64,000 bases of DNA from Microgenomates group bacterium Gr01-1014_5 (GCA_007376395.1 VMGE01000003.1:26057-90056), one strand, 5' to 3'; numbered from the stretch's first letter, positions 1-41,733 are shown. The notes: generated from the letters alone by a model not told the origin. Program-made: numbers and translations.

Positions 1-588
1 CATAATATCTGAGGCACGGAAAGCGTCACGTCTATGAATTATAGTTATTTCTGAAGCATACTTGGTTAAAACCATAGCCTCTTCCATCGCACTATCACCT
101 CCACCGACAACAACGACACGCTTCTCTCTAAAAAACGGTGCGTCACAAGGAGCGCATGAAGAAATCCCTCGCCCAATTAATTTTTGCTCACTCTCTAGTC
201 CCAGCCAAATAGTGTCTGCTCCTGTAGCTATAATGACTGATTTACCCTCATATCCCATATTTCCCGCATTTACCTTAAACGGCCTTTGGGAAAAATCAAC
301 ACTTTCTACATCTTCAAGTTTAATTTCTGCGCCAAAACGGGCGGCTTGGGAACGAAACTTTTCCATTAATTCCAGTCCTTGTATTCCTTCTGGGAACCCT
401 GGATAGTTTTCAACTTCAGTTGTGAGCATTAATTGTCCACCCCACTTAGTGCCCCCTAGAATTAAAGTAGATAAAGCTCCGCGCGTTGTATAAATCCCGG
501 CAGTCAGTCCTGCAGGACCCGAGCCAATGATAATTGTGTCATAAGGAGCTCCGGTTTTTGGTTTTGGAGCAATGAAATTATCTGTCAT
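1..588 (-). CDS. trxB: Thioredoxin-disulfide reductase. The 5' end is complete with ATG at 588-586; the gene runs off the window start.
   Basis: Reverse translation gives MTDNFIAPKPKTGAPYDTIIIGSGPAGLTAGIY... with a CAPCDAPFF redox motif and a GGGDSA NADPH motif. It is not in the ORF track because it has no stop inside the window. Confidence 0.8.
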   Translation of the reverse strand, partial: MTDNFIAPKPKTGAPYDTIIIGSGPAGLTAGIYTTRGALSTLILGGTKWGGQLMLTTEVENYPGFPEGIQGLELMEKFRSQAARFGAEIKLEDVESVDFSQRPFKVNAGNMGYEGKSVIIATGADTIWLGLESEQKLIGRGISSCAPCDAPFFREKRVVVVGGGDSAMEEAMVLTKYASEITIIHRRDAFRASDIM

Positions 589-600
589 AAATAAACAGAG

Positions 601-672
601 AATTAGAGAATTAGAAATTAGAGATTAGATTGTTTTCTAATCAACTAATTAACTAATTCCCTAATTAACTAG
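601..672. repeat. AATTAG/CTAATT-rich intergenic element
   Basis: Seen directly in sequence. The same flavour of element recurs at 18731-18833 and 55168-55224. Confidence 0.5.
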
Positions 673-983
673 GCCTGACCTCCCTGTGCTGTTCCTTCGC
701 CTGCATCAGGAGCCGGCTCGCCTCGATTCGCATCGGGCGAAGCGGGTGTCGCCGGATCCGGAACCGGTGTTGGTTCTGGCGTTGGATTTACCACTTCTGT
801 AGGAGCGGGTTCACCTGCCGGAACCTCATTTAAAGGTGCTGCGGGCTCGCCTCGATTCGCATCGGGCGAAGCTGGTTCTGGTATGGTTGGCGCTGGTCCA
901 CCCATTGGAGCCGCGGGTTGCGGTCCGCCTGGTTGTGCCGGTTGTACTGGTTGTACTGGTTGATTTGGATCTGTTGGTTGCAT
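669..983 (-). CDS. Pro/Ala-rich low-complexity protein of about 104 aa with an internal repeat PASPDANRGEPA x2. It is hypothetical and could instead be a non-coding GC-rich repeat.
   Basis: ORF 669..986. A 28-nt near-perfect direct DNA repeat sits at about 709-741 and 840-872. There is no signal peptide and GC is atypically high. Confidence 0.3.
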   Translation of the reverse strand: MQPTDPNQPVQPVQPAQPGGPQPAAPMGGPAPTIPEPASPDANRGEPAAPLNEVPAGEPAPTEVVNPTPEPTPVPDPATPASPDANRGEPAPDAGEGTAQGGQA

Positions 984-989
984 CAAATA

Positions 990-1307
990 TCACCCCGCTT
1001 TCGAAATTAAATCTTCAAATGGTTTTTTACCGTTAAAGCCTACTTGCCTGCTAACTTCCTGTCCGCCTTTAAAAAGGATGGTTGTTGGGATAGAGAGTAC
1101 GCCATATTTTTGCGGAGTATTAGAGTTTTTGTCGACATCTAATTTTGCCATAACTACTTTATCTTGTGAATTTGACAGTTCTTCAAGAACCGGTTCCGCC
1201 AATTTACAAGGACCGCACCAGGTTGCAAAAAAATCTAAAAGCACTGGTTTGCCGCTTTGTAAAACCTTACTTTCAAAATCTTGGTCAGAAACTTCAATTA
1301 AAGCCAT
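990..1307 (-). CDS. trxA: Thioredoxin
   Basis: WCGPCK active-site motif; 105 aa. Confidence 0.9.
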   Translation of the reverse strand: MALIEVSDQDFESKVLQSGKPVLLDFFATWCGPCKLAEPVLEELSNSQDKVVMAKLDVDKNSNTPQKYGVLSIPTTILFKGGQEVSRQVGFNGKKPFEDLISKAG

Positions 1308-1353: not shown

Positions 1354-3582
1354 TCACAATCTTGCGTTTTTCAGCCTCAAAGAGTTGGCCACAACCGAAA
1401 TAGAGCTTGCGGCCATAGCAAAAGAGGCAAGCGCTGGACTTAACAGCCAACCGGTAAGGGGATATAAAACTCCCATGGCAACAGGAATTAAAATAATATT
1501 GTAGCCAAACGCCCAAAAAAGATTTTGGCGGATTATACCCATTGTCTTTTTTGACAAATCAACTGCCCGGGCTACTGAGCGCAAATCACGATTTATCAGT
1601 GTTATGTTTCCTGCCTCAATTGCCACATCAGTTCCGGATCCCATGGCAATTCCGACGTCAGAAGCGGCAAGAGCCGGGGCGTCATTTATCCCATCCCCGA
1701 CCATCGCCACCTTTTTACCCTCTGCCTGGATTTTTCTCACTTCGGCTTCTTTATCTTGAGGTAACACTTCTGCTAATACTCTTTTTATCCCTACTTGCCC
1801 GGCGATTGCTTTGGCAGTTCGCGCGTTGTCACCGGTAATCATGACAGTTTCAATTCCCATCTTTTGCAGAGCCAAAACTCCGTCTTTGGCAGTATCTTTA
1901 ACGGTATCGGCAACTGCAACCAGTCCTATAAGTTTACCGTCAACAGCAAGCATCATTACTGTTTTCCCAGCACTCTCCAATCCTACAAGGTGAGACCTTG
2001 TAGGCTCAATATCTATCTTCTCTTTTTCCATCATCTTTCTGTTTCCCAAAAACACTTTCTGCTTACCCACCATTCCCTCCACCCCATGCCCGGGAATTGC
2101 TTTAAACCCTGTAACTTTGTATAAGGCGACCCCTTGTTCATCTGCTTTTTTCACAATCGCCTCAGCCAGAGAATGCTCTGAACCTTTTTCCAAAGATGCA
2201 GCCAGTTGTAGCAGTTTTTCTTTTGTTACTTTTGCCTTGTCACTTGTTACTATATCCGTGACGATTGGTTTTCCGTTTGTCAACGTCCCTGTTTTGTCAA
2301 AAATAACGACATTGATTTTATTCGCTATTTCCAAACTCTCAGCGTCTTTAATTAAAATTCCATGTTCCGCCCCGCGTCCTGTACCAACCATAATGGCAGT
2401 AGGCGTTGCCAATCCCATGGCGCAAGGACAAGCAATAATCAAAACCGCGATACTGTTTAGCATGGCAAATAAGAACGCGCTTTGCTGTCCAAAAACATAC
2501 CAGCTAACAAACGTGGCTATGGCCAGCATGATTACAACCGGCACAAAATAAGAAGAGATTAAGTCTGCCAAGCGCTGGATTGGAGCCTTTGAGCCCTGAG
2601 CTTCCTCAACCAGTTTTATAATTTGGGCGAGTAAGGTTTCTTGTCCAACTTTTTCTGCTTTATAAAGAAAAGAGCCGGACTTATTCATTGTCGCCCCAAT
2701 AACCTTATCTCCTCTGGTTTTATCAACAGGAATACTCTCTCCGGTAACCATCGACTCGTCAATCGACGATTCTCCTTCGGTAATTACCCCGTCTACGGGA
2801 ATCTTTTCACCCGGCCGGACACGGATTATATCCCCTATCTGTACTTGGTCAATAGAGATGTCAATTTCTTTACCCGCTCTCACAACCCGAGCAGTTTTTG
2901 CCTGCAAACCAATTAATTTTTTAATTGCCTCGCTCGTTCCCGCCTTTGCTTTTGCTTCAAAATATCGCCCCAAGAGAATTAATCCAATAATTACCGCCGT
3001 CACATCAAAGTAAGGCATTGGTTCAATTCCGGCTTGAGAGACCATTTGAGGAAAAAAAGTTACAACAGTAGAATAGATAAATGCCACAGATGTACCCAGA
3101 GCTACTAAGGTGTCCATATTGGCCGTTCTGTGGCGCAAAGCGGGAATTGTTGCCCGGTAAAACGTGAGTCCTGCCCAAAATTGAACAGGCAGGGCAAGGA
3201 GAAACTGGACAATAAAGTCTTGCAAAAAACTAGGCGAGGTCTGAATCAGTCCCGGGAAACTACCCCAGACAATCGGCGCCGCAAGCCCGAGACTTACCAG
3301 CACTTTTGTTCTTAGATCCTTTAGTTCACGAGTTTTTTGTTCTTTCTCTTCATCCAACGTCTGTTCTTGATGTCCCACCATTGCTTTGTAGCCAACATTA
3401 GCAACGGCAGAAGCCAGCTTTTCGTCAGTTACTTGTCCGCCGCAAACCACAGTAGCTTTACCGGTTGCAAGATTGACGCTTGCGCGCTCCACGCCGGGAA
3501 CTTTTCCGAGAGATTTCTCCAAAATACGCACACAAGAGGCACAATGCATTCCTTGAATAGAAAAGGTTTTAGTTTGTGCCAT
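1354..3582 (-). CDS. copA: Copper-translocating P1B-type ATPase. The likely start is MAQTKTF at 3582; the ORF track extends to 3627.
   Basis: N-terminal HMA domain GMHCASC. CPC transmembrane motif [18 protein letters not shown] phosphorylation site. GDGINDAP hinge. Confidence 0.92.
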
Positions 3583-3584
3583 AT

Positions 3585-3950
3585 TTACCTCACGATTATT
3601 TTTCCATGGTACATGTTCATACCGCATGAATAACCAAACTCACCAGATTTTTGGGGTGTAATTTCAATCGTAACTTTTTGGTTTAAAGGAAGATACTTTT
3701 TGATCTTGAAATCAGGCAGAACAACCTCTTCTAAGCACGAATTGGAATCTTTACGGATAAAGTTTATCTTTGTAGTTTTTCCTCTGGGTATAGAAATAAC
3801 TTCAGGGGAATAGCCGCCTTCTACAACAACATCTATCCCCTGCCCTCCCGTAGCTTCAGCGAAGGAGGGTTTTTTGCCCAAAAAAAACCAATAGGTAAAA
3901 ATAATACCGACAAAACCCAAACCTATAACCAATAGATCTTTTAATTCCAT
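3585..3950 (-). CDS. Membrane-anchored small protein with a cupredoxin-like C-terminal metal-binding motif ([10 protein letters not shown])
   Basis: N-terminal TM helix. C-terminal C-G-M-N-M-Y-H-G resembles the C-terminus of the ORF at 7323..8321 (YTCSMGMFTG). It is adjacent to copA. Confidence 0.5.
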
Positions 3951-3959
3951 GATTTTAAA

Positions 3960-4283
3960 TTACTTTGAGAATTTGTTGTAGAAATAAGCAATCGCATACC
4001 CGACCGTCCAGGAAAAAGCAGTTGAGGTTGCAAGGCCCCAAACAACAGTCCCCATCCCTATTTCTTTCCCGCTTCTCAAAGACTCAAGGTTCAAAGCATG
4101 AACCCAAGAGTTTGAAAGGCTTAGTAATAAATCAGGCGCAACCCAAGTTAGCACTAAGCAGACAATGTAAATAACTCCGGTAACTACTGCGGCGGCGTTC
4201 GCAAAAGCGGTTGTTTTTAACATCTTTCTCACCTCCTTTAGTGTTTGTGACCCTTCATCATAAAAATCATCATTATCGGACAA
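3960..4283 (-). CDS. Hypothetical membrane protein
   Basis: ORF track; hydrophobic segments; lies within the copper cluster. Confidence 0.4.
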   Translation of the reverse strand: MSDNDDFYDEGSQTLKEVRKMLKTTAFANAAAVVTGVIYIVCLVLTWVAPDLLLSLSNSWVHALNLESLRSGKEIGMGTVVWGLATSTAFSWTVGYAIAYFYNKFSK

Positions 4284-4386
4284 ATCAACAAAACCGCAAA
4301 AGGCAACACTGCATTAACATTGGTATTTTGCAACAAGAGCAACAGCAATAATACTCCTACAGCTGCGACCCATATTTGCCACATTG
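4238..4386 (-). CDS. Small membrane protein with a Met/His-rich C-terminus (MMIFMMKGHKH). Likely start is MWQIW at about 4386.
   Basis: One TM helix and a Met/His tail typical of Cu-binding peptides. The track ORF extends to 4453 in a region overlapping the neighbouring ORF. Confidence 0.35.
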
Positions 4387-4564
4387 TCAAATATTTTTTC
4401 ACAAAAAACACCTCCTTATTTTTTATTAATCTGTTTCCAGAGCCAAATTCCAAGCAGTGTTAAATCTACCAGTAAGACCAAAACAAAGAGCGTTCCTACG
4501 CCAAAACCTTGATACCCCATCATGTTTCCATAGTTCCATCCCATCATTTGCACTTCACCTCCTG

Positions 4565-5398
4565 TTAAACTTTTTTAAAAATATGCCCTAATAGATATAT
4601 TAACCCAACAACGAGGATTATGTTTATCAGGATATTGTTCCCTACAAACGAATCAATCAACTCTGCCGAACCGGTAATCATCTTTGTAAAACCTTCCATG
4701 TTGTCGATAGACAATTTTCCCGCCCTTTCAAGGCTAAGTATTAATACTCCTGTTACAAAGAAAATACTTGAGGCAATAAGATTGCCCAGAGTCACCACAA
4801 ACCTTCTGCCCCAAAAATTCAAGATTCCGATAGAGCGCCTTAAAACTGCCAATTTTTGGGCTTTTCCGTCCAAAAACAAAGAAATAAACAAAAGCGGCAC
4901 CACCATCCCCAAAACATACATGCCGCCAATTGCCAAAGCGCCCAAAAAGCTCGGAGATAAAAACGTTAGAGTTAATATTCCAATTAAAACCGGCGCACAG
5001 CAGGCGCTCGTTATTCCGGAAAAAACTCCAAGTGTAAAGATAGATAAAATGTCTGTTTTTTGCTGCCCGGATCTTGTTAGGTTCGGCATGGGCAATTTAA
5101 TTCCCAGGAAAGTAACGACGGCAACAACAAGCATGACTATTCCGCCGCTTAGGTAAATTTCGTTGTGATAACGGAACAGGGCTTGCGAAATAAAAGCAAC
5201 TCCCAAAACTGCCGGTAAGAGAACCACGAAAATTCCGGCGGCAAAAACTAAGGTTGCGAAAACTACTTTTTCTTTTTCTTTAAAAACAGACCCGAGGTAA
5301 GCCGGGAGCAGGAAAGTTATACAGCAGGGAGCAAATAGCGCAACCATACCCGCAACAAAGGCTGCGACTAAGGATGTTTGGAAAAGCATTTCCCCCAT
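4565..5398 (-). CDS. DsbD_2/CcdA-like thiol-disulfide membrane transporter
   Basis: Polytopic membrane protein with two Cys pairs in TM helices (FAPCCITFLLP and SACCAPVL). Confidence 0.5.
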   Translation of the reverse strand: MGEMLFQTSLVAAFVAGMVALFAPCCITFLLPAYLGSVFKEKEKVVFATLVFAAGIFVVLLPAVLGVAFISQALFRYHNEIYLSGGIVMLVVAVVTFLGIKLPMPNLTRSGQQKTDILSIFTLGVFSGITSACCAPVLIGILTLTFLSPSFLGALAIGGMYVLGMVVPLLFISLFLDGKAQKLAVLRRSIGILNFWGRRFVVTLGNLIASSIFFVTGVLILSLERAGKLSIDNMEGFTKMITGSAELIDSFVGNNILINIILVVGLIYLLGHIFKKV

Positions 5399-5401
5399 AT
5401 T

Positions 5402-6337
5402 TTAAGCTCCGCAGGATCCGCCTTTATTTTGGAAAGAGGGAATGTCCTGAACAGATTGTTTTATGCGCTGGGCACCAGTTGCAGAAGAATATTCCTGCGA
5501 CAAAGCAAGCTTTGCGTCCACTTTTTTCCAATCAATACCCTCTTTGTTAAAATATGCCGCCATTTCGACGTAAGTCTGCGGAAACCAAAAAGAGTTGAAA
5601 GCCAATAGGTCTTTATATATCTGGTCTTCGGGCAAACCTTTAGAAACCGCAAGCTGGATATATCCCAAAGCAGCCATGCCATGGTTGCAATCGGGAAAGG
5701 CTGTATTGTTGCCGCAGCAAGGCCGGTATACATTTCCGGCTATCTTTGTCACCAAGTCCTGCTGATCTTGAGTTAGAGGAATAATTACTTTTGAGGAGTA
5801 ATAACTCATTGCATCCTTTTTCCCCAGTGTCCAGCCGCCTGTTGAGGCAAAGTTTGCCGTTTGTTTCGGATCTTTCTGCATTTGACCTTTTGTCAAAACG
5901 TCGCTTTTATTAACAAGCCCCAACGCCCACAAAGTATTCACCATAAAATGCGCGTTCTTTTCGTTGATAACCATATAGTCCCCAGACTCTTCTTCTAAGT
6001 ATTTCATATAGTCTCCACCATTAGTGTTATCGGTAAATATCTTTTTGTATTTCTCTTCAGAGATAACCCCGGACTCAATCAGCTGTTTACCGATATTTCC
6101 CCAAGAAACCACTGTTCTAAAGCCGTCAGGCGGCAAAACTTCCTGTTTGAGAATGTTGACCAGCTCCTCGGGGTCTTTTGTCGACTTGGAAAGTTCAAGA
6201 AAATTTAGTTGGAGCTGTTTTTGGGAGAGATAATACTGAATTATGCCTGTATACAAAACCGAATTTAAAACAATTAAAATAACTGCCCAAAGGGGAATAG
6301 ATTTTGCGAGGATTTTTTTGATCTTTTTAAAGCTCAT
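5402..6337 (-). CDS. Membrane-anchored Cys-rich hypothetical protein
   Basis: N-terminal TM helix. Cys-rich segment PCCGNNTAFPDCNHGM and a C-terminal GGSCGA. Sits in the CsoR/CopA cluster. Confidence 0.5.
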   Translation of the reverse strand: MSFKKIKKILAKSIPLWAVILIVLNSVLYTGIIQYYLSQKQLQLNFLELSKSTKDPEELVNILKQEVLPPDGFRTVVSWGNIGKQLIESGVISEEKYKKIFTDNTNGGDYMKYLEEESGDYMVINEKNAHFMVNTLWALGLVNKSDVLTKGQMQKDPKQTANFASTGGWTLGKKDAMSYYSSKVIIPLTQDQQDLVTKIAGNVYRPCCGNNTAFPDCNHGMAALGYIQLAVSKGLPEDQIYKDLLAFNSFWFPQTYVEMAAYFNKEGIDWKKVDAKLALSQEYSSATGAQRIKQSVQDIPSFQNKGGSCGA

Positions 6338-6828
6338 TTAACTACAACTCCTTTTAAGGAAAATTCAAGTTTTGGTTTAATCTTATCATTAGTTTCTACA
6401 GAAACTAAACGCGTAATAGGGCCGACGCCGGTCGGACCATGAAAGGTCGGGTCGTAAATTACTGTCAATTGCGCCTCTTTTCCGGGAGACACCTCGCCGC
6501 TCCAGGAAGAGGTTGGGTGCATACTAAAATACGGGCTTTGTCCTTGTTCAGTTGTAATTTGCGCTTTGGTACAAGTGCACGAAGTTTTAATGTTTAGCAG
6601 TTTCAATGTTTCTGTGCCTTCATTTTTAATAACAAAGGTTTTTAGGGCGTTGCCGCCAGCATACGGTATTGTTCCCCAGTCAAAGGAAATTTCCGGCGTT
6701 ACAGCCTTTACATTGCTCGAGGATTCCAAAACAGCAGGTTTTCCGGTTAAGGCAGTTGCGAACCAAACAGCACCTGCAACTAAAGTTATTAAAGATAGTA
6801 CAAGCCAAAACACCAGTTTAAGGTTCAT
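6334..6828 (-). CDS. DUF1573-like beta-sandwich protein with an N-terminal TM anchor
   Basis: TSCTCT motif and size (164 aa) consistent with DUF1573. Has a 4-nt overlap with the downstream gene. Confidence 0.5.
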   Translation of the reverse strand: MNLKLVFWLVLSLITLVAGAVWFATALTGKPAVLESSSNVKAVTPEISFDWGTIPYAGGNALKTFVIKNEGTETLKLLNIKTSCTCTKAQITTEQGQSPYFSMHPTSSWSGEVSPGKEAQLTVIYDPTFHGPTGVGPITRLVSVETNDKIKPKLEFSLKGVVVK

Positions 6829-7154
6829 TGTTTGTTTTTAAAAATCTTTAAGATTTCTTTCAAAGATTCTTCTGTTTCCCCATTTTTTATTTGATCCGCG
6901 ACGCAGGTTTTTAAGTGGTTATCAAGAAGAACGCTGTCTGCTTCTTTTATAGCCTTTTGTACGGCACGCGATTGATGAATTACGTCTGGGCAATAATCTC
7001 CGTTATCCACCATTTGAATAACCTTGGCTAAATGTCCGCTGGCAATTTTTAAGCGGTGAAGAACCGCTTGTTTTATCGATGAATCTCTGGGAATTCCTTT
7101 TGGCATCTCGTCGTTTCCTCCACACGATGTAAACTTCTTCATTATATCCCCCAT
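6825..7154 (-). CDS. csoR: CsoR/RcnR-family copper-sensing transcriptional repressor. An alternative start is MKKF at 7142.
   Basis: YCPDVIHQ...KTC places the C-H-C ligand triad in the CsoR arrangement; about 105 aa; first gene of the copper operon. Confidence 0.85.
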   Translation of the reverse strand: MGDIMKKFTSCGGNDEMPKGIPRDSSIKQAVLHRLKIASGHLAKVIQMVDNGDYCPDVIHQSRAVQKAIKEADSVLLDNHLKTCVADQIKNGETEESLKEILKIFKNKQ

Positions 7155-7201
7155 ATGGGGATTAAGTCAAGACTACTGGTTTGTCTTTGGCAATACCGAT
7201 A

Positions 7202-7294
7202 TGACATCCTCCCCGCTCTGACGAGCGGGGTTTCCACCTCTAAAGGAGGATGACATATCAGCGTTCAATTCATCTCCCGGCTGTGAGCCGGGAG
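7202..7294. promoter_or_regulatory. Divergent promoter/operator region with a GC-rich hairpin ccccgctc-tgac-gagcgggg (about 7211-7230), flanking imperfect inverted repeat ATGACATCCTCC/GGAGGATGACAT, and a second hairpin ctcccggct-gtg-agccgggag (about 7274-7294) followed by TTTTCTT.
   Basis: Seen directly in sequence between csoR (minus) and the ORF at 7323 (plus). CsoR operators are typically C/G-tract pseudo-palindromes. Confidence 0.4.
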
Positions 7295-7322
7295 TTTTCT
7301 TGAATGCTGTTATAATAACGTT

Positions 7323-8321
7323 ATGCAAATTATCTGGCTTGCTTTTATCACCGGTTTAACCACAGGCGGGCTAACTTGTCTGGCGGTACAAGGCGGCCTT
7401 TTAGCCTCGGCTGTTGACCAGAAAAATAGAATTTCGACTAAGTATTTGGTGGGCACTTTTTTACTTACTAAACTTTTTGCCTATACCCTGCTCGGTTTTG
7501 GGCTGGGATCTCTCGGGTCTGTCTTAACTCTTTCCCCGACTACTCAAGGATGGATGCAAATCGCAGCCGGACTTTATATGCTGGCGACTGCGGCTAGACT
7601 CTTGGATTTACACCCAATTTTCCGTTATACCGCGCTCCAACCCCCTAAATGGGCGTTCTACGCCGCGCGTAAAATAACCAAAAATGAATCTCTTTTTACG
7701 CCAGGCATTTTGGGATTTATGACAGTATTTATCCCCTGCGGAGTCACACAAGCAATGATGGTTTTGGCAATCACCTCGGGCGACCCTCTAACAGGAGCCG
7801 GAATTATGTTTGCCTTTACCCTTGGTACCAGCCCGATTTTCTATGCCTTGGGAGCAGGCGCGGTCCAACTTATCCAGCGCAAGTCCTTTGCATATGCCGC
7901 CGCCTTACTGGTTGCCATACTGGGGGTAGGTTCGGTAAACAGCGGACAGGCTTTGCGCGGATCGGTGCACACCCTGCAAAACTACTGGCTGGCGGCTACA
8001 ACTGATACGCTGACGACTTATGCCCAAGGGACACGTGCAAAAATCAATTCAGAAGGTAAACAAGAGGTTACTATTAACGTTTCTGACCGCGGCTATTCTA
8101 CCCAAGTAGACACTTTAAAAGCAGGCATACCGGTTAAACTCACACTCGTTACAAACAACGTTCAGGGCTGTACACGGGCGTTCACCATCCCTTCTTTAAA
8201 CATGTCACGCGTCTTGCCGCAAACAGGAAAGGAAATGCTCGAATTTACGCCAACTCAAGCCGGCCGCCTGTCATACACTTGCAGTATGGGCATGTTTACA
8301 GGAAGCTTTCAAGTAATATGA
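7323..8321 (+). CDS. Polytopic membrane protein fused to a C-terminal cupredoxin-like soluble domain. Putative copper-related permease.
   Basis: Multiple TM helices at the N-terminus. The C-terminal roughly 90 aa end in YTCSMGMFTGSFQVI, paralogous to the end of the ORF at 3585..3950. Confidence 0.55.
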   Translation: MQIIWLAFITGLTTGGLTCLAVQGGLLASAVDQKNRISTKYLVGTFLLTKLFAYTLLGFGLGSLGSVLTLSPTTQGWMQIAAGLYMLATAARLLDLHPIFRYTALQPPKWAFYAARKITKNESLFTPGILGFMTVFIPCGVTQAMMVLAITSGDPLTGAGIMFAFTLGTSPIFYALGAGAVQLIQRKSFAYAAALLVAILGVGSVNSGQALRGSVHTLQNYWLAATTDTLTTYAQGTRAKINSEGKQEVTINVSDRGYSTQVDTLKAGIPVKLTLVTNNVQGCTRAFTIPSLNMSRVLPQTGKEMLEFTPTQAGRLSYTCSMGMFTGSFQVI

Positions 8322-8539
8322 AAAGGCTAGATTCTACAACCTACAAACTACCGACTAAAACCTTCTCCATAAAAGGTATGCATTGTTCATCTTGCGCCTC
8401 ATTGATAGAACTAGAGCTCGAAGATGTTGGAATTAAAGCCTCTTGCAGTTACCCCAAACAAGCTCTGGAAGTCGACGAGAATATTGATAAAGAGGAATTA
8501 AAAAAAGTTATCCAGCCTTTGGGATACGATGTCGAGTAA
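8318..8539 (+). CDS. copZ: Heavy-metal-associated (CopZ-like) copper chaperone. Start at MKRL overlaps the upstream stop as ATGA.
   Basis: GMHCSSC (GMxCxxC) motif; 73 aa from the ATG at 8318. The track ORF begins at 8279. Confidence 0.8.
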   Translation: MKRLDSTTYKLPTKTFSIKGMHCSSCASLIELELEDVGIKASCSYPKQALEVDENIDKEELKKVIQPLGYDVE

Positions 8540-9506
8540 TATCGTATACTCGGGTATTAGGAAGTTTGAGACCCAAGAGGTACCCGACATCCCGAAGACT
8601 AACATGGTCTGCAAGAAGATGAACCGCAAACGAGCGGCGTAGTGTATGGGTTGTAATATCTTCAGGCAATCCCACGGCTCTCACATAACCTTTAAAAATC
8701 AACCAAATACCTTGCCGGGTTAACCTTTCCTCACGGTGGCTGACAAAAAGAGCGTCTGTTTCGGCGTGCCACAAACCCGAGCGCGAGCCTTCTAGGTAAT
8801 TTTGGATTGCCTCGTGAGTTTTCAAATCAAACGGAATTTGTCTTTCACGCCCCAATCTTAAACACCGCACATAATCTACTCCTAGGTTTATGTCATCTTT
8901 ATTAAGACTTGCCATTTCCGAAACGCGCATACCGGTAGCATAGAATAACCTCAACATTGCCGAATCGCGCATTGCTTCAGGGCTTTTATTGGCTTCTGGC
9001 GCGGCCAGAAGAGCCGCAATTTCATTTTTACTCAAAACTCGAGGGAGAGCTCTGGAGGTTTTAGGTGTTTCTATATCCAGTAAGGGATTGGTTCTCATTA
9101 TCCCGTCTTCGATTTCCCAACGGAAAAAGGCTCTAGCCGAGGCAATTTTCCGTGCGATGGTTGCTGGAGCATATCTATGCTCCTCCAACGATAAGAGAAA
9201 TCCGCTCATATCTTCTTTAGTAACACTACTCCAGGTATGTGGACCCTTTCTCAGATCCAAATACCTGCCGAGTTGAGACAAATCACTGCGGTAGGCATCG
9301 ACCGTATTTCTTGGTGTCTTTATATCCTTTAGGCAATTAAGATAAGCCCTGACGCTCAGATCTGGAATTGGATACTCTGGATCTTTATAGAAAGGAAAAG
9401 AGCCGTTTGGCGCGGTGTCTCGTGGTGTTTGAAATAATTTTCGCCCGTGCTCTAACCCCATTTTAGTGTTTGAGCAGATATTAATACTAATCTGCAAGAC
9501 TTGCAA
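8508..9506 (-). CDS. Tyrosine site-specific recombinase (XerC/XerD-like)
   Basis: GMRVSEM (R box), HTLRRSFAVHLL (H-x-x-R) and a C-terminal LGLKLPNTRVYDITRH with the catalytic Tyr. Confidence 0.8.
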   Translation of the reverse strand: MQVLQISINICSNTKMGLEHGRKLFQTPRDTAPNGSFPFYKDPEYPIPDLSVRAYLNCLKDIKTPRNTVDAYRSDLSQLGRYLDLRKGPHTWSSVTKEDMSGFLLSLEEHRYAPATIARKIASARAFFRWEIEDGIMRTNPLLDIETPKTSRALPRVLSKNEIAALLAAPEANKSPEAMRDSAMLRLFYATGMRVSEMASLNKDDINLGVDYVRCLRLGRERQIPFDLKTHEAIQNYLEGSRSGLWHAETDALFVSHREERLTRQGIWLIFKGYVRAVGLPEDITTHTLRRSFAVHLLADHVSLRDVGYLLGLKLPNTRVYDITRHRIPKAG

Positions 9507-9511
9507 GCCCC

Positions 9512-10129
9512 CTACTCCTTTGTCTTTTCAGGACCTTGGTTGCGGAAAGCATCAATAAATTTTATAATCCGTTCTTCGTCAAAATCATCCAGCTTATCTA
9601 TTCTCGTCCAGGCAGTCAAAGCAATGCGCGCGTCTAAAGCAGGTCGCGGGACAACAATTAACCTGTCTTCTCCTTTTTTCTTGTAAACCCCGGCAAGTTT
9701 GGCGACTAATTCTTTACATTCCGGTAAATCCCAATCTCCTCCGGAAATTGTTGCGCTTGGCGTACTTTCAGCCGAACCTGTTGCCTCATCCTCTCCTGTG
9801 TGCGCAAGGGCTTGCGGAATAAGATTAAAGCTTTGCGGGTGCACTTCGCAGTTGTAGCTTATGATGATATAGCCGTGTTCTAGCGAGTGAATTAAATATC
9901 CATCCTCCTTAACAGCACTATAAACCCCTTTTTTAACCCAATCCGCATAATGGTTACCTGAAGTTGGCGGGTTGGAATTATAATTAACTTTTGTTCCCAG
10001 AGGGACGTGTTCACGCCCCAAATCAGCCATAACTTCTCCCGTTAACGGTTTTGAGGCTCCGTACCACATCCAACCAATACCGGCAATTACTAAAATTGCT
10101 AAAACTATCCAAACAAAACTGCCTTTCAC
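9512..10129 (-). CDS. DUF3105-like membrane-anchored protein
   Basis: N-terminal TM helix; NPPTSGNHY and HSLEHGY motifs. Confidence 0.45.
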   Translation of the reverse strand: MKGSFVWIVLAILVIAGIGWMWYGASKPLTGEVMADLGREHVPLGTKVNYNSNPPTSGNHYADWVKKGVYSAVKEDGYLIHSLEHGYIIISYNCEVHPQSFNLIPQALAHTGEDEATGSAESTPSATISGGDWDLPECKELVAKLAGVYKKKGEDRLIVVPRPALDARIALTAWTRIDKLDDFDEERIIKFIDAFRNQGPEKTKE

Positions 10130-41386: not shown

Positions 41387-41733
41387 GAGATTATGCATCT
41401 GTAATCTCTAATTACTCAGAGTGTCGGACTATATCTTCACCCCGATTAAATCGGGGGCTCGGCGTGTAGTCTCTACGGTGTCCCTCCGAAACTTTAGTGA
41501 AGGAGGGTTCCCTCGGTATTACCCTCTATAAGAGTAGGGTTTCACCGATATAGCCAAGTTATCAAGAAACATTACTGTTAAATGTGCCCAATTTGAGCCT
41601 CCTGTGCAACTCTACACTACCCCGCATGTCTCTTACCAACTGAATTATAACAGATGCAGGCTCGAATTAAAAGCCTCTTGACTACCAATAGAATAGCTGT
41701 TATGGTGATAGTTAAACCACATAACTTTATACA
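41387..41733 (+). other. Highly structured ~345-nt non-coding region with several perfect hairpins. Candidate ncRNA or attachment-site region.
   Basis: Hairpins CCCCGATT-taaa-ATCGGGG, CCCTCC-gaaactttagtga-GGAGGG and CTCT-ata-AGAG; no ORF; GC is higher than in surrounding intergenic DNA. Confidence 0.3.

Follow-up and report, generated by a model that had tools for sequence, protein, structure and literature searches.

A copper gene cluster conserved across candidate phyla radiation bacteria and its putative envelope thiol relay

Which genes travel with the copper regulator CsoR, the copper pump CopA and the metallochaperone CopZ in bacteria of the candidate phyla radiation (CPR, or Patescibacteria), and what might they do together? 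The question is raised by a locus of Microgenomates group bacterium Gr01-1014_5 at positions 1,354 to 8,539 of a 64,000-nucleotide (nt) stretch of DNA (GCA_007376395.1 VMGE01000003.1:26057-90056), which we call the window and from whose first letter all coordinates are counted. A first-pass annotation had described the locus as a CsoR-headed copper-homeostasis island with several uncharacterised membrane or Cys-rich partners, and had suggested an extended periplasm-facing system for copper handling or thiol redox. We find that the cluster is conserved across hundreds of Patescibacteria/CPR genomes, and that the clustering goes far beyond chance. Its csoR-copA-copZ core is ordinary; among the partners are a 277-amino-acid (aa) membrane protein related to CcdA and marked by Cys-Cys doublets (CcdA-CC), a DUF1573 protein, and a 311-aa protein outside any Pfam family (P311). 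We propose that Cu(I) efflux is coupled to an envelope thiol relay that would run from thioredoxin (Trx) to CcdA-CC, then to the CxC motif of the DUF1573 protein and on to P311, a reading to which we give a probability of roughly 0.45 to 0.5.

The locus and its conservation in CPR genomes

The cluster comprises a series of minus-strand genes headed by csoR and a pair of plus-strand genes that diverges from it, as listed here with the E-values of the supporting matches (ORF, open reading frame; TM, transmembrane).

7141..7170, minus strand: operon promoter, with TTGACT at 7170-7165, an 18-nt spacer and TATAAT at 7146-7141
7145..7163, no strand assigned: CsoR-type operator, the G/C-tract palindrome TATCCCCCATATGGGGATT, within the promoter spacer
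6825..7106 (ORF to 7154), minus strand: csoR, predicted Cu(I)-sensing repressor, probably 93 aa (PF02583, 1.7e-22)
6334..6828, minus strand: DUF1573 protein with an N-terminal signal-anchor, an immunoglobulin (Ig)-like domain and the motif S-C-x-C-T (PF07610, 1.1e-12)
5402..6337, minus strand: P311 (311 aa), membrane-anchored and predicted extracytoplasmic (no Pfam family)
4565..5398, minus strand: CcdA-CC, 277-aa CcdA-family membrane protein (family profile versus 5VKV, 8.8e-8)
4416..4553, minus strand: 45-aa single-pass Met-rich membrane protein (no Pfam family)
4238..4384 (ORF to 4453), minus strand: DUF2933 small membrane protein, about 48 aa (PF11666, 1e-7)
3960..4223 (ORF to 4283), minus strand: DUF5676 two-TM protein, about 87 aa (PF18926, 4.5e-19)
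3585..3950, minus strand: membrane-anchored Cupredoxin_1 protein, here the free cupredoxin (PF13473, 1.7e-22)
1354..3582 (ORF to 3627), minus strand: copA, P1B-1 Cu(I)-exporting ATPase, 742 aa (TIGR01511, 643 bits)
990..1307, minus strand: thioredoxin gene (trx), product predicted cytoplasmic, WCGPC (PF00085, 5.2e-28)
7323..8321, plus strand: DsbD_2-cupredoxin, a six-TM DsbD_2 domain with a C-terminal Cupredoxin_1 domain (PF13386, 4.4e-25; PF13473, 2.4e-10)
8318..8539 (ORF from 8279), plus strand: copZ, HMA metallochaperone, 73 aa, GMHCSSC (PF00403, 4e-9)

All ORFs named in the first-pass annotation were found in place, and its calls of a DUF1573-like protein, an anchored cupredoxin-like protein and a permease fused with a cupredoxin-like domain agree with the matches above; the DsbD_2/CcdA-like call for the 277-aa protein stands as well, through the comparison of its family profile with 5VKV. 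The identities given to csoR, copA and copZ are borne out (by PF02583, by TIGR01511 with an HMA domain, and by HMA, respectively), but their starts had to be revised: csoR, drawn from 7154, most likely begins at ATG 7106; copA, whose ORF extends to 3627, most likely begins at the ATG at 3582, which sits 2 nt past the stop codon of the cupredoxin gene; and copZ, in an ORF open from 8279, is placed at 8318. Where two tiny TM proteins had been counted there are three genes, coding for the 45-aa protein, DUF2933 and DUF5676, all of which recur in related loci, and the label 'Cys-rich' for P311 comes down to four cysteines only, all invariant or nearly so. The ORFs of csoR and DUF1573 and those of DUF1573 and P311 overlap by 4 nt each, and the annotated ATGA is present at 8318-8321, where the TGA of DsbD_2-cupredoxin overlaps the ATG of copZ.

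For the comparison across species one genome per species was scanned, and 83 loci containing a P311 homologue were then searched, as six-frame ORFs, with the window proteins. A P311 relative occurs in at least 587 species genomes. The 83 loci hold homologues of DUF1573 in 71 cases, of CcdA-CC and CopA in 61 each, of CsoR in 56 and of DUF5676 in 45, while the cupredoxin protein, DsbD_2-cupredoxin and CopZ were found in 33, 29 and 26, respectively. Where at least 5 kb of sequence flanks P311 on both sides (43 loci), a homologue lies no more than 5 kb from it in 40 cases for DUF1573, 35 for a CcdA-like protein, 35 for CopA and 31 for CsoR. These loci come from Davies-, Levy-, Curtiss-, Beckwith-, Chisholm-, Ames-, Roizman-, Woese- and Gottesmanbacteria, Parcubacteria and Peribacteraceae. 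Conservation of the gene neighbourhood, proposed earlier as the check on the cluster, is thus what we observe: the partners are kept beside copA or csoR in dozens of genomes of several CPR lineages, often in the same order. Gene order is shuffled between lineages with the linkage retained, and the DsbD_2-cupredoxin/CopZ pair is found either after copA or divergent from csoR. The series recurs around distant homologues: in L001 a single strand carries CsoR, DUF1573 and P311, followed by a membrane protein of 264 aa, another protein of 50 aa, DUF5676, cupredoxin, CopA, DsbD_2-cupredoxin and an HMA protein.

A Curtissbacteria locus (L002, 9994-16325) adds to the cluster a YHS-domain protein and, besides a second CC-type CcdA, a Redoxin/AhpC-TSA protein (CYPAC) along with three unknown genes; it also encodes a Lycopene_cyc-domain protein and a CopA whose N-terminus is of HMBD type. 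Several metagenome-assembled genomes that bear the cluster (L005, L007, L008, L013, L014 and others, from binchicken assemblies) are titled 'uncultured Gammaproteobacteria', 'Pseudomonadales' or 'Brocadiaceae'; they hold the CPR-type cluster at about 60% protein identity, and these titles are probably placeholders or taxonomically wrong. In CPR/Patescibacteria the genomes are tiny and the envelope biology is mostly unknown; the operon is among the better conserved multi-gene units encountered in this analysis. We found no description of the cluster in the literature on DUF1573, DUF5676 or CPR together with copper or CsoR.

The CsoR operator and the copper-handling genes

The regulator scores 80 bits against PF02583 (cut-off 22.8). 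Its C55, H80 and C84 are kept in 56, 56 and 50 of 57 homologues, respectively, and Y54 and E100 are also conserved. These five residues (Y54, C55, H80, C84, E100) lie at a constant offset of 19 from Y35, C36, H61, C65 and E81 of M. tuberculosis CsoR, of which we take Y35 and E81 to be the second-shell residues. The ligands of the M. tuberculosis protein are numbered C36, H61 and C65, and within this regulator family, to which both CsoR and CstR belong, an x-C-H-C fingerprint denotes Cu(I) sensors and x-C-x-C denotes persulfide sensors (PMC8643695). The window protein has the x-C-H-C fingerprint without an N-terminal 'W' ligand, which by the same published criterion is that of a Cu(I) sensor. 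We regard a response of the operon to copper as near certain.

The promoter agrees with the consensus at 11 of 12 positions (consensus scan, minus strand), and its spacer palindrome occurs only once in the window, with 0.01 matches expected by chance. In an 87%-identical relative (L085) promoter and palindrome are identical and stand directly before a csoR called at 93 aa. Since GGAGG precedes ATG 7106 in the window, the promoter and operator lie upstream of it, and csoR is called at 93 aa in L085, we place the start at 7106 rather than 7154. The csoR ATG of L085 lies 6 nt past TATAAT (2580-2630), predicting a leaderless csoR mRNA there; the window carries about 32 nt extra, with the GGAGG.

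Published CsoR operators are G-tract pseudopalindromes, with the Streptomyces consensus ATATACCCCTNAGGGGTATAT (PMC3902906). The window box resembles this consensus, which the boxes of four other loci (L025, L059, L064, L065) match almost exactly, and most of the remaining locus boxes have the form ATATCCCC-N3-5-GGGGGATAT. With a stringent box pattern, 19 of the 20 boxes found in 1.17 Mb of locus sequence lie at -250 to +80 nt from the start of a cluster gene. In seven loci (L012, L027, L030, L063, L069, L070, L075) the triad DUF1573-P311-CcdA is set apart from csoR-cupredoxin-copA, and a box stands before DUF1573; three of them (L012, L070, L075) have a second box before csoR. Because separate triads carry a box, and because 19 of 20 stringent boxes lie at cluster gene starts, the triad is, on these predicted sites, part of the CsoR regulon in its own right. 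The notion that unrelated genes came by chance to lie beside a standard csoR-copZA unit can accordingly be set aside with next to no hesitation: linkage of these genes, frequently with their order intact, recurs in dozens of genomes spread over different CPR classes, and the triad has a CsoR box of its own where it stands alone.

Between the csoR promoter and the DsbD_2-cupredoxin gene the window contains a strongly structured insert of about 125 nt (within 7171-7322). Its minimum free energy is -66.4 kcal/mol (z = -6.5 versus shuffles), and it forms nested hairpins at 7198-7259 and a terminator-like hairpin at 7274-7294 followed by TTTTCTT on the plus strand. It is absent from L085, where the intergenic region measures 90 nt, and has no further copies in the window. 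Matches to known RNAs in Rfam are sub-threshold only (HgcC, 29 bits versus a gathering score of 50). The insert could be an attenuator or leader for the plus-strand genes, a small RNA, or an insertion resembling a miniature inverted-repeat transposable element. Because a TGnTATAAT at 7308-7316 ends 6 nt ahead of ATG 7323, there is a hint that the DsbD_2-cupredoxin transcript may be leaderless.

CopA scores 643 bits against the Cu-subfamily model TIGR01511 (cut-off 397), comprises HMA (4.2e-14), E1-E2_ATPase and Hydrolase domains, and shows GMHCASC, CPC, DKTGT, YN and MxxSS in its translation. Every partner protein carries conserved Cys, Met or His. The free cupredoxin conserves C72 and C109-x-M111-x-M113-x-H115, with C283, C320, M322 and M324 as conserved equivalents in the fused cupredoxin domain; C19 and C139 of DsbD_2-cupredoxin are conserved as well. 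As only one His (H115 of the free cupredoxin) is conserved, and the His-Cys-His-Met ligand set of type 1 (blue) copper is lacking, this is not a classical type 1 site. From charge distribution and inspection the fused domain is predicted to face outward; which way the free cupredoxin points is ambiguous by charge distribution. SO_0444-type efflux proteins, considered as a candidate family for DsbD_2-cupredoxin, are not recovered in NCBIfam: no named family there matches the protein even at E<=10.

The small membrane proteins have soft-ligand residues of their own. The 45-aa protein begins with MQMMGWNYGNMMGY, a Met-rich segment (MMGWGYG..MM) predicted to lie outside the cell, and continues with a membrane helix containing an Asp and a basic C-terminus; homologues are present in 16 related loci, with M3, M4, M11, M12, D30 and WLWKQ (W37-Q41) conserved. 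The DUF2933 protein has an in-membrane Cys-Pro and a Met/His-rich C-terminus (C58, P59 and H69 conserved), and C42 and H62 of the DUF5676 protein are kept in all 46 homologues (46/46).

The trx gene lies 47 nt downstream of copA on the same strand. It is possibly co-transcribed with copA, and its product is a candidate for supplying the CcdA-like protein with electrons. Seven other loci have a thioredoxin after copA, and so does a 94%-identical one (L084), which runs from copA through a 249-aa gene, Trx, an 89-aa gene and a thioredoxin-reductase-like gene (TrxB; Pfam Pyr_redox_2) to a DsbA-like gene. The minus strand of window positions 1-986 bears a Pro-rich 105-aa ORF (669-986) and a TrxB-like ORF (GSGPAG...SCAPCD) that is truncated where the window starts.

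CcdA-CC, DUF1573, P311 and the flanking genes

The 277-aa protein has no Pfam match of its own, be it to PF02683, PF13386 or any other family, even at E<=10. PF02683 is matched by two of 20 close relatives, and some close homologues are named 'CcdA' by their sources. A profile of 20 family members aligns with Thermus thermophilus CcdA (5VKV; E = 8.8e-8, residues 8-181) in such a way that the first Cys of its APCC motif falls on the active-site Cys of TM1 (the PC motif) and the first Cys of SACC on that of TM4. By this profile the protein is a CcdA relative. Unlike CcdA, it has Cys-Cys doublets (APCC, SACC) at both active-site positions, the second of which is kept in 61 of 64 cluster-linked copies, and it ends in a C-terminal extension of about 100 aa. 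BLASTP finds no direct similarity between it and the DsbD_2 protein of the window. In the Curtissbacteria locus L002 the second CC-type CcdA is followed by the predicted extracytoplasmic Redoxin with its CYPAC motif, and the two read as a classic CcdA-plus-partner pair.

The DUF1573 protein scores 48.2 bits against PF07610 (cut-off 26.1). Its two motif cysteines are almost without exception, C84 being conserved in 81/81 and C86 in 80/81 sequences, followed by H130 (77/81) and M103 (72/81). From the positive charge of the N-terminus the domain is predicted to face outward. Sites that contain selenocysteine are usually redox-active. Selenoprotein members of DUF1573 have U-G-C at the CxC motif (PMC9312934), and NF041425 likewise describes selenoprotein members; that these relatives carry U-G-C there is an argument for a redox-active site at the CxC motif of the window protein.

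P311 belongs to a family of 6175 homologues (583 clusters at 50% identity), none of which has a protein name, and those of named source all come from Microgenomates or other Patescibacteria (CPR). It is built of an N-terminal membrane anchor and a mostly helical domain of about 250 aa, predicted extracytoplasmic. Among 25 close and 134 representative sequences the segments R205-P206-C207-C208-x-N210, D216-C217-N218-H219-G220 and A164-S-T-G-G-W169 are invariant or nearly so, as is C309 in a Gly-rich C-terminal tail (GGxCG); the RPCCxN...DCNHG motif is present in all 83 loci. No consistent match to P311 emerged from a PDB profile search, from Pfam run on 25 aligned members at E<=1, or from NCBIfam at E<=10. 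Its AlphaFold2 model has a mean pLDDT (predicted local distance difference test score) of 79, with most 10-residue core blocks above 85 and a disordered tail, and Foldseek found no match to the model in the PDB (best E = 2.1).

Fusions are recurrent in this family. In 12 of 133 representatives P311 is fused to an N-terminal multi-TM domain that has an in-membrane G-C-P-x-C-G motif (CPxCG) and no Pfam match. Four such proteins (P0256, P0258, P0273, P0324) measure about 470-550 aa and carry GCPVCG or ACPACG; past the last helix P0256, P0258 and P0324 have a CxxC or CxxxC pair, and P0273 a single Cys. In 11 of the 83 loci (L037, L041, L051, L053, L054, L061, L068, L069, L073, L078, L083), all of Woese-/Gottesmanbacteria type, and also in protein P0248, a rhodanese domain with an intact active-site loop (YCKTGRMS), predicted extracytoplasmic, lies between the membrane anchor and the P311 domain. 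A CcdA-like gene is absent from 9 of the 11 rhodanese-fused loci versus 13 of the 72 unfused ones (Fisher p = 6e-5, kinship ignored). Given the CcdA linkage, the CPxCG fusions and the rhodanese fusions, P311 is repeatedly coupled to a Cys-bearing 'feeder', which may be encoded separately (a CcdA-type protein) or fused to it (a CPxCG membrane domain or a rhodanese). A more far-reaching idea, which we put forward as tentative and on the whole doubtful, is that DUF1573, P311 and the Cys-Cys CcdA form an undescribed CPR-wide envelope machine. In it P311 would be a new fold with a buried CC...CxH centre and a flexible C-terminal Cys 'arm', supplied by a CcdA-type conduit, a fused rhodanese or a CPxCG domain, and would bring a new copper-defence chemistry, such as trapping Cu(I) at the cell surface in a thiol- or persulfide-dependent way.

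As to the flanks, a tyrosine recombinase of XerC/D type (8508-9506, minus strand; Phage_integrase, 4.1e-33) converges on copZ with an ORF overlap of 32 nt. It is probably unrelated to the copper cluster, since such a neighbour adjoins the cluster in only 1 of 83 loci. For the same reason, and because base composition is the same as in the flanks, we do not call the locus a horizontally acquired island. One kilobase from copZ lies a DUF3105 gene (9512-10129, minus strand; PF11303, 1.6e-28) whose product has an N-terminal membrane anchor and the motifs PPTSGNH and SLEHGY; homologues occur near the cluster in 7 of 83 related loci, and it may be a further copper-related envelope protein. Elsewhere in the window a group I catalytic intron is found at 41405-41605 on the minus strand (Rfam, 68.2 bits versus a gathering threshold of 50).

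A proposed thiol relay, its rivals and known copper systems

We suggest that CsoR, bound to the G-tract palindrome between -35 and -10, represses, at a single promoter, a ten-gene minus-strand operon of csoR, DUF1573, P311, CcdA-CC, the three small membrane proteins, cupredoxin and copA, with trx perhaps co-transcribed. Cu(I) at the Cys-His-Cys site would free CsoR from DNA. In the efflux module CopZ would pass Cu(I) to the P1B-1 ATPase CopA, and the cupredoxin-like proteins with their Cys, Met and His, together with the small Met/Cys/His membrane proteins, would act as Cu(I) acceptors or buffers at the membrane. In the relay module CcdA-CC would move reducing equivalents from cytoplasmic thioredoxin outward, so that first DUF1573, through its CxC, and then P311, through CC...CxH and its flexible C-terminal Cys, would be kept reduced outside the cell. 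Once reduced, these two proteins might sequester surface Cu(I) or undo the disulfides that copper catalyses in surface proteins. Electron-flow direction, relay order and the substrate of P311 are what we infer in this scheme.

A relay of thiols is suggested by the homology of the membrane component with CcdA, the pairing with Redoxin in L002, the selenocysteine-containing relatives of DUF1573 and the precedent of Scs/DsbD-DsbC, and we also count in its favour the trx gene and TrxB-like ORF downstream of copA, on the same strand, both here and in L084, as well as the fusions of P311 to CPxCG and rhodanese domains and the scarcity of CcdA-CC where the rhodanese is fused. More broadly, synteny, CsoR boxes, an x-C-H-C regulator, conserved Cys, Met and His residues and CcdA kinship back the earlier suggestion of an extended copper and thiol-redox system, which we word as envelope-facing; CPR cells probably have no classical periplasm. 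Several observations speak against the relay. The Pfam and NCBIfam scans reveal no thioredoxin-fold extracytoplasmic partner in the window cluster, unlike every characterised CcdA/DsbD pathway; CcdA is not known for Cys-Cys doublets within its membrane helices; the in-membrane CPxCG found in fused P311 relatives resembles a metal site; and seven loci have trx after copA but no CcdA-CC. The AlphaFold2 model of CcdA-CC is poor (pLDDT 59.7), with Foldseek matches that are non-specific and all at E >= 0.48, and since the fold of P311 has no known relative its chemistry is a guess. For the divergent pair, control by CsoR is itself in doubt: the box lies about 160 nt from the start codon of DsbD_2-cupredoxin with the structured insert in between, and no second box for the pair occurs within 3 mismatches in the window.

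Transporters of thiophilic metals, for instance MerT and MerF, typically have Cys-Cys doublets in membrane helices. The cluster might accordingly translocate a thiophilic metal by a Mer-like logic. The doublets and CPxCG would then be ligands on a path through the membrane by which Cu(I), Ag(I) or Hg(II) is handed to, or received from, DUF1573 and P311, and these two would be extracytoplasmic metallochaperones or sinks and not redox proteins. We judge this unlikely, while regarding it as the chief competitor. It would explain the strict conservation of vicinal Cys pairs in two membrane helices, the TM-CPxCG::P311 fusions, the soft-ligand motifs of every partner with the Met-rich character of the small proteins, and the control of the whole unit by a Cu(I) sensor. 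It fits less well with the 277-aa protein being homologous to an electron carrier, CcdA, with the active-site cysteines aligned, or with the CC-type paralogue of L002 standing beside a CxxC Redoxin, a redox partner; no Mer-family match appears even at E<=10, and with a dedicated Cu(I) pump already there, Cu import upon CsoR derepression would be counter-productive.

Two further readings start from the cupredoxins and from the rhodanese fusions. The relay might reduce and load Cu into a cupredoxin-like or other surface cuproprotein, as CcdA/TlpA-Sco-PCuAC does for cytochrome oxidase, serving maturation instead of defence. The two cupredoxin-domain proteins, the CcdA homology and the known need for TlpA-type reductants in the loading of Sco and PcuC agree with this, but a repressor released at high Cu(I) and shared with the efflux pump points to detoxification, the cupredoxin domains have one conserved His and lack the two-His type 1 ligand set, and roughly half of the triad-bearing loci have no cupredoxin protein, so that we hold maturation to be improbable. 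Slimmer still are the odds that the cluster handles reactive sulfur, with the regulator a CstR-type persulfide sensor and the rhodanese fusions and DsbD_2 protein dealing with sulfane sulfur or sulfite, perhaps precipitating Cu as sulfide. Rhodanese::P311 with its intact loop in 11 of 83 loci would suit such a role, as would the presence in the cluster of a DsbD_2 domain, whose clan presumably also includes the TauE sulfite exporters, and the membership of CstR in the regulator family of CsoR (PMC8643695). Against it, the His of x-C-H-C is kept in 56 of 57 homologues and the regulator gene has copA and copZ for neighbours, neither a sulfide:quinone oxidoreductase nor a persulfide dioxygenase is found among the called genes of L001, L002, L003, L084 and L085, and the P311 of the window is without a rhodanese domain.

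Three families without an assigned function (DUF1573 in this context, DUF5676 and P311) and the unusual CcdA subtype gain a testable setting, namely copper induction via a recognisable CsoR operator. If the thiol relay is true, the combination of copper efflux with protection or repair of surface thiols arose independently of proteobacterial Scs/DsbD and with other proteins, and P311 offers a new cysteine-based fold for biochemical study. If instead the metal is what is relayed, the scaffold of CcdA has been repurposed as a conduit for Cu(I).

Among known systems, Scs and DsbD-DsbC resemble the cluster in being copper-induced envelope thiol systems in which a DsbD/CcdA-type protein feeds Cys-containing extracytoplasmic proteins, as would be the case here. 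The electron-passing periplasmic domains of DsbD and ScsB are Ig-like, a further likeness with the Ig-like domain predicted for the DUF1573 protein of the window. In Scs, Cu(I)-binding thiol oxidoreductases are coupled to a DsbD-like membrane protein under copper stress (PMC10907172, PMC8900818). The window differs in having no thioredoxin-fold partner of ScsC/DsbC type, the likely acceptors being the DUF1573 CxC protein and P311, and its membrane component has Cys-Cys doublets and lacks the fused soluble domains of ScsB; Pfam and NCBIfam detect neither an ScsC-type oxidoreductase nor ScsB fused periplasmic domains in any cluster protein. Because both are lacking, we regard the window system as an analogue of Scs and not as a member. 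It also stands under CsoR, whereas Scs is under envelope-stress or MerR-type regulators, and the hosts of Scs/DsbD are Gram-negative whereas the host here is a CPR bacterium, a group not known to have an outer membrane.

Other likenesses concern parts of the cluster. CcdA-ResA/StoA and CcdA/TlpA-Sco-PCuAC combine a six-TM CcdA, which takes thioredoxin electrons outward, with anchored thiol proteins, some of them copper-handling; their acceptors are of thioredoxin fold and serve cytochrome maturation, unlike the other acceptors and the copper-stress repressor found here. MerT/MerP/MerF, as generally known, likewise combine membrane helices that bear vicinal cysteines with a Cys protein on the extracytoplasmic side, all under a metal sensor. 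There is no sequence relationship, the window has no MerA, and its membrane protein is a CcdA homologue; Pfam and NCBIfam assign none of the window membrane proteins to a Mer family, and the only similarity is the generic HMA one of CopZ and CopA. With csoR-copZA of Firmicutes and Actinobacteria (B. subtilis, M. tuberculosis, Streptomyces lividans) the window shares an x-C-H-C CsoR, a G-tract operator over the promoter, a P1B-1 CopA and an HMA CopZ (PMC8643695, PMC3902906), but it has seven further genes between csoR and copA in one transcription unit, and its copZ belongs to a divergent pair, behind DsbD_2-cupredoxin. The MerR-CopA-cupredoxin-DUF2933(-ICMT) clusters of Alteromonas, Vibrio and Pseudoalteromonas (PMC8478169) also set CopA directly beside small cupredoxin-domain and DUF2933 proteins; they have a MerR-type regulator and an isoprenylcysteine methyltransferase, and lack DUF1573, P311, CcdA-CC and DUF5676.

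It was therefore too strong to say, as had been done, that beyond CopA, CopZ and CsoR none of the partners is a standard copper-resistance component: the CopA-cupredoxin-DUF2933 arrangement is already known from Gammaproteobacteria (PMC8478169), and DsbD-type proteins are established in Scs (PMC10907172), where copper tolerance is tied to a DsbD-type reductant pathway. What is new with respect to these systems is the CC-doublet subtype of CcdA, DUF1573 as a likely shuttle, the large P311 family, for which we found neither a description nor a structural relative, and their joint CsoR control across CPR lineages.

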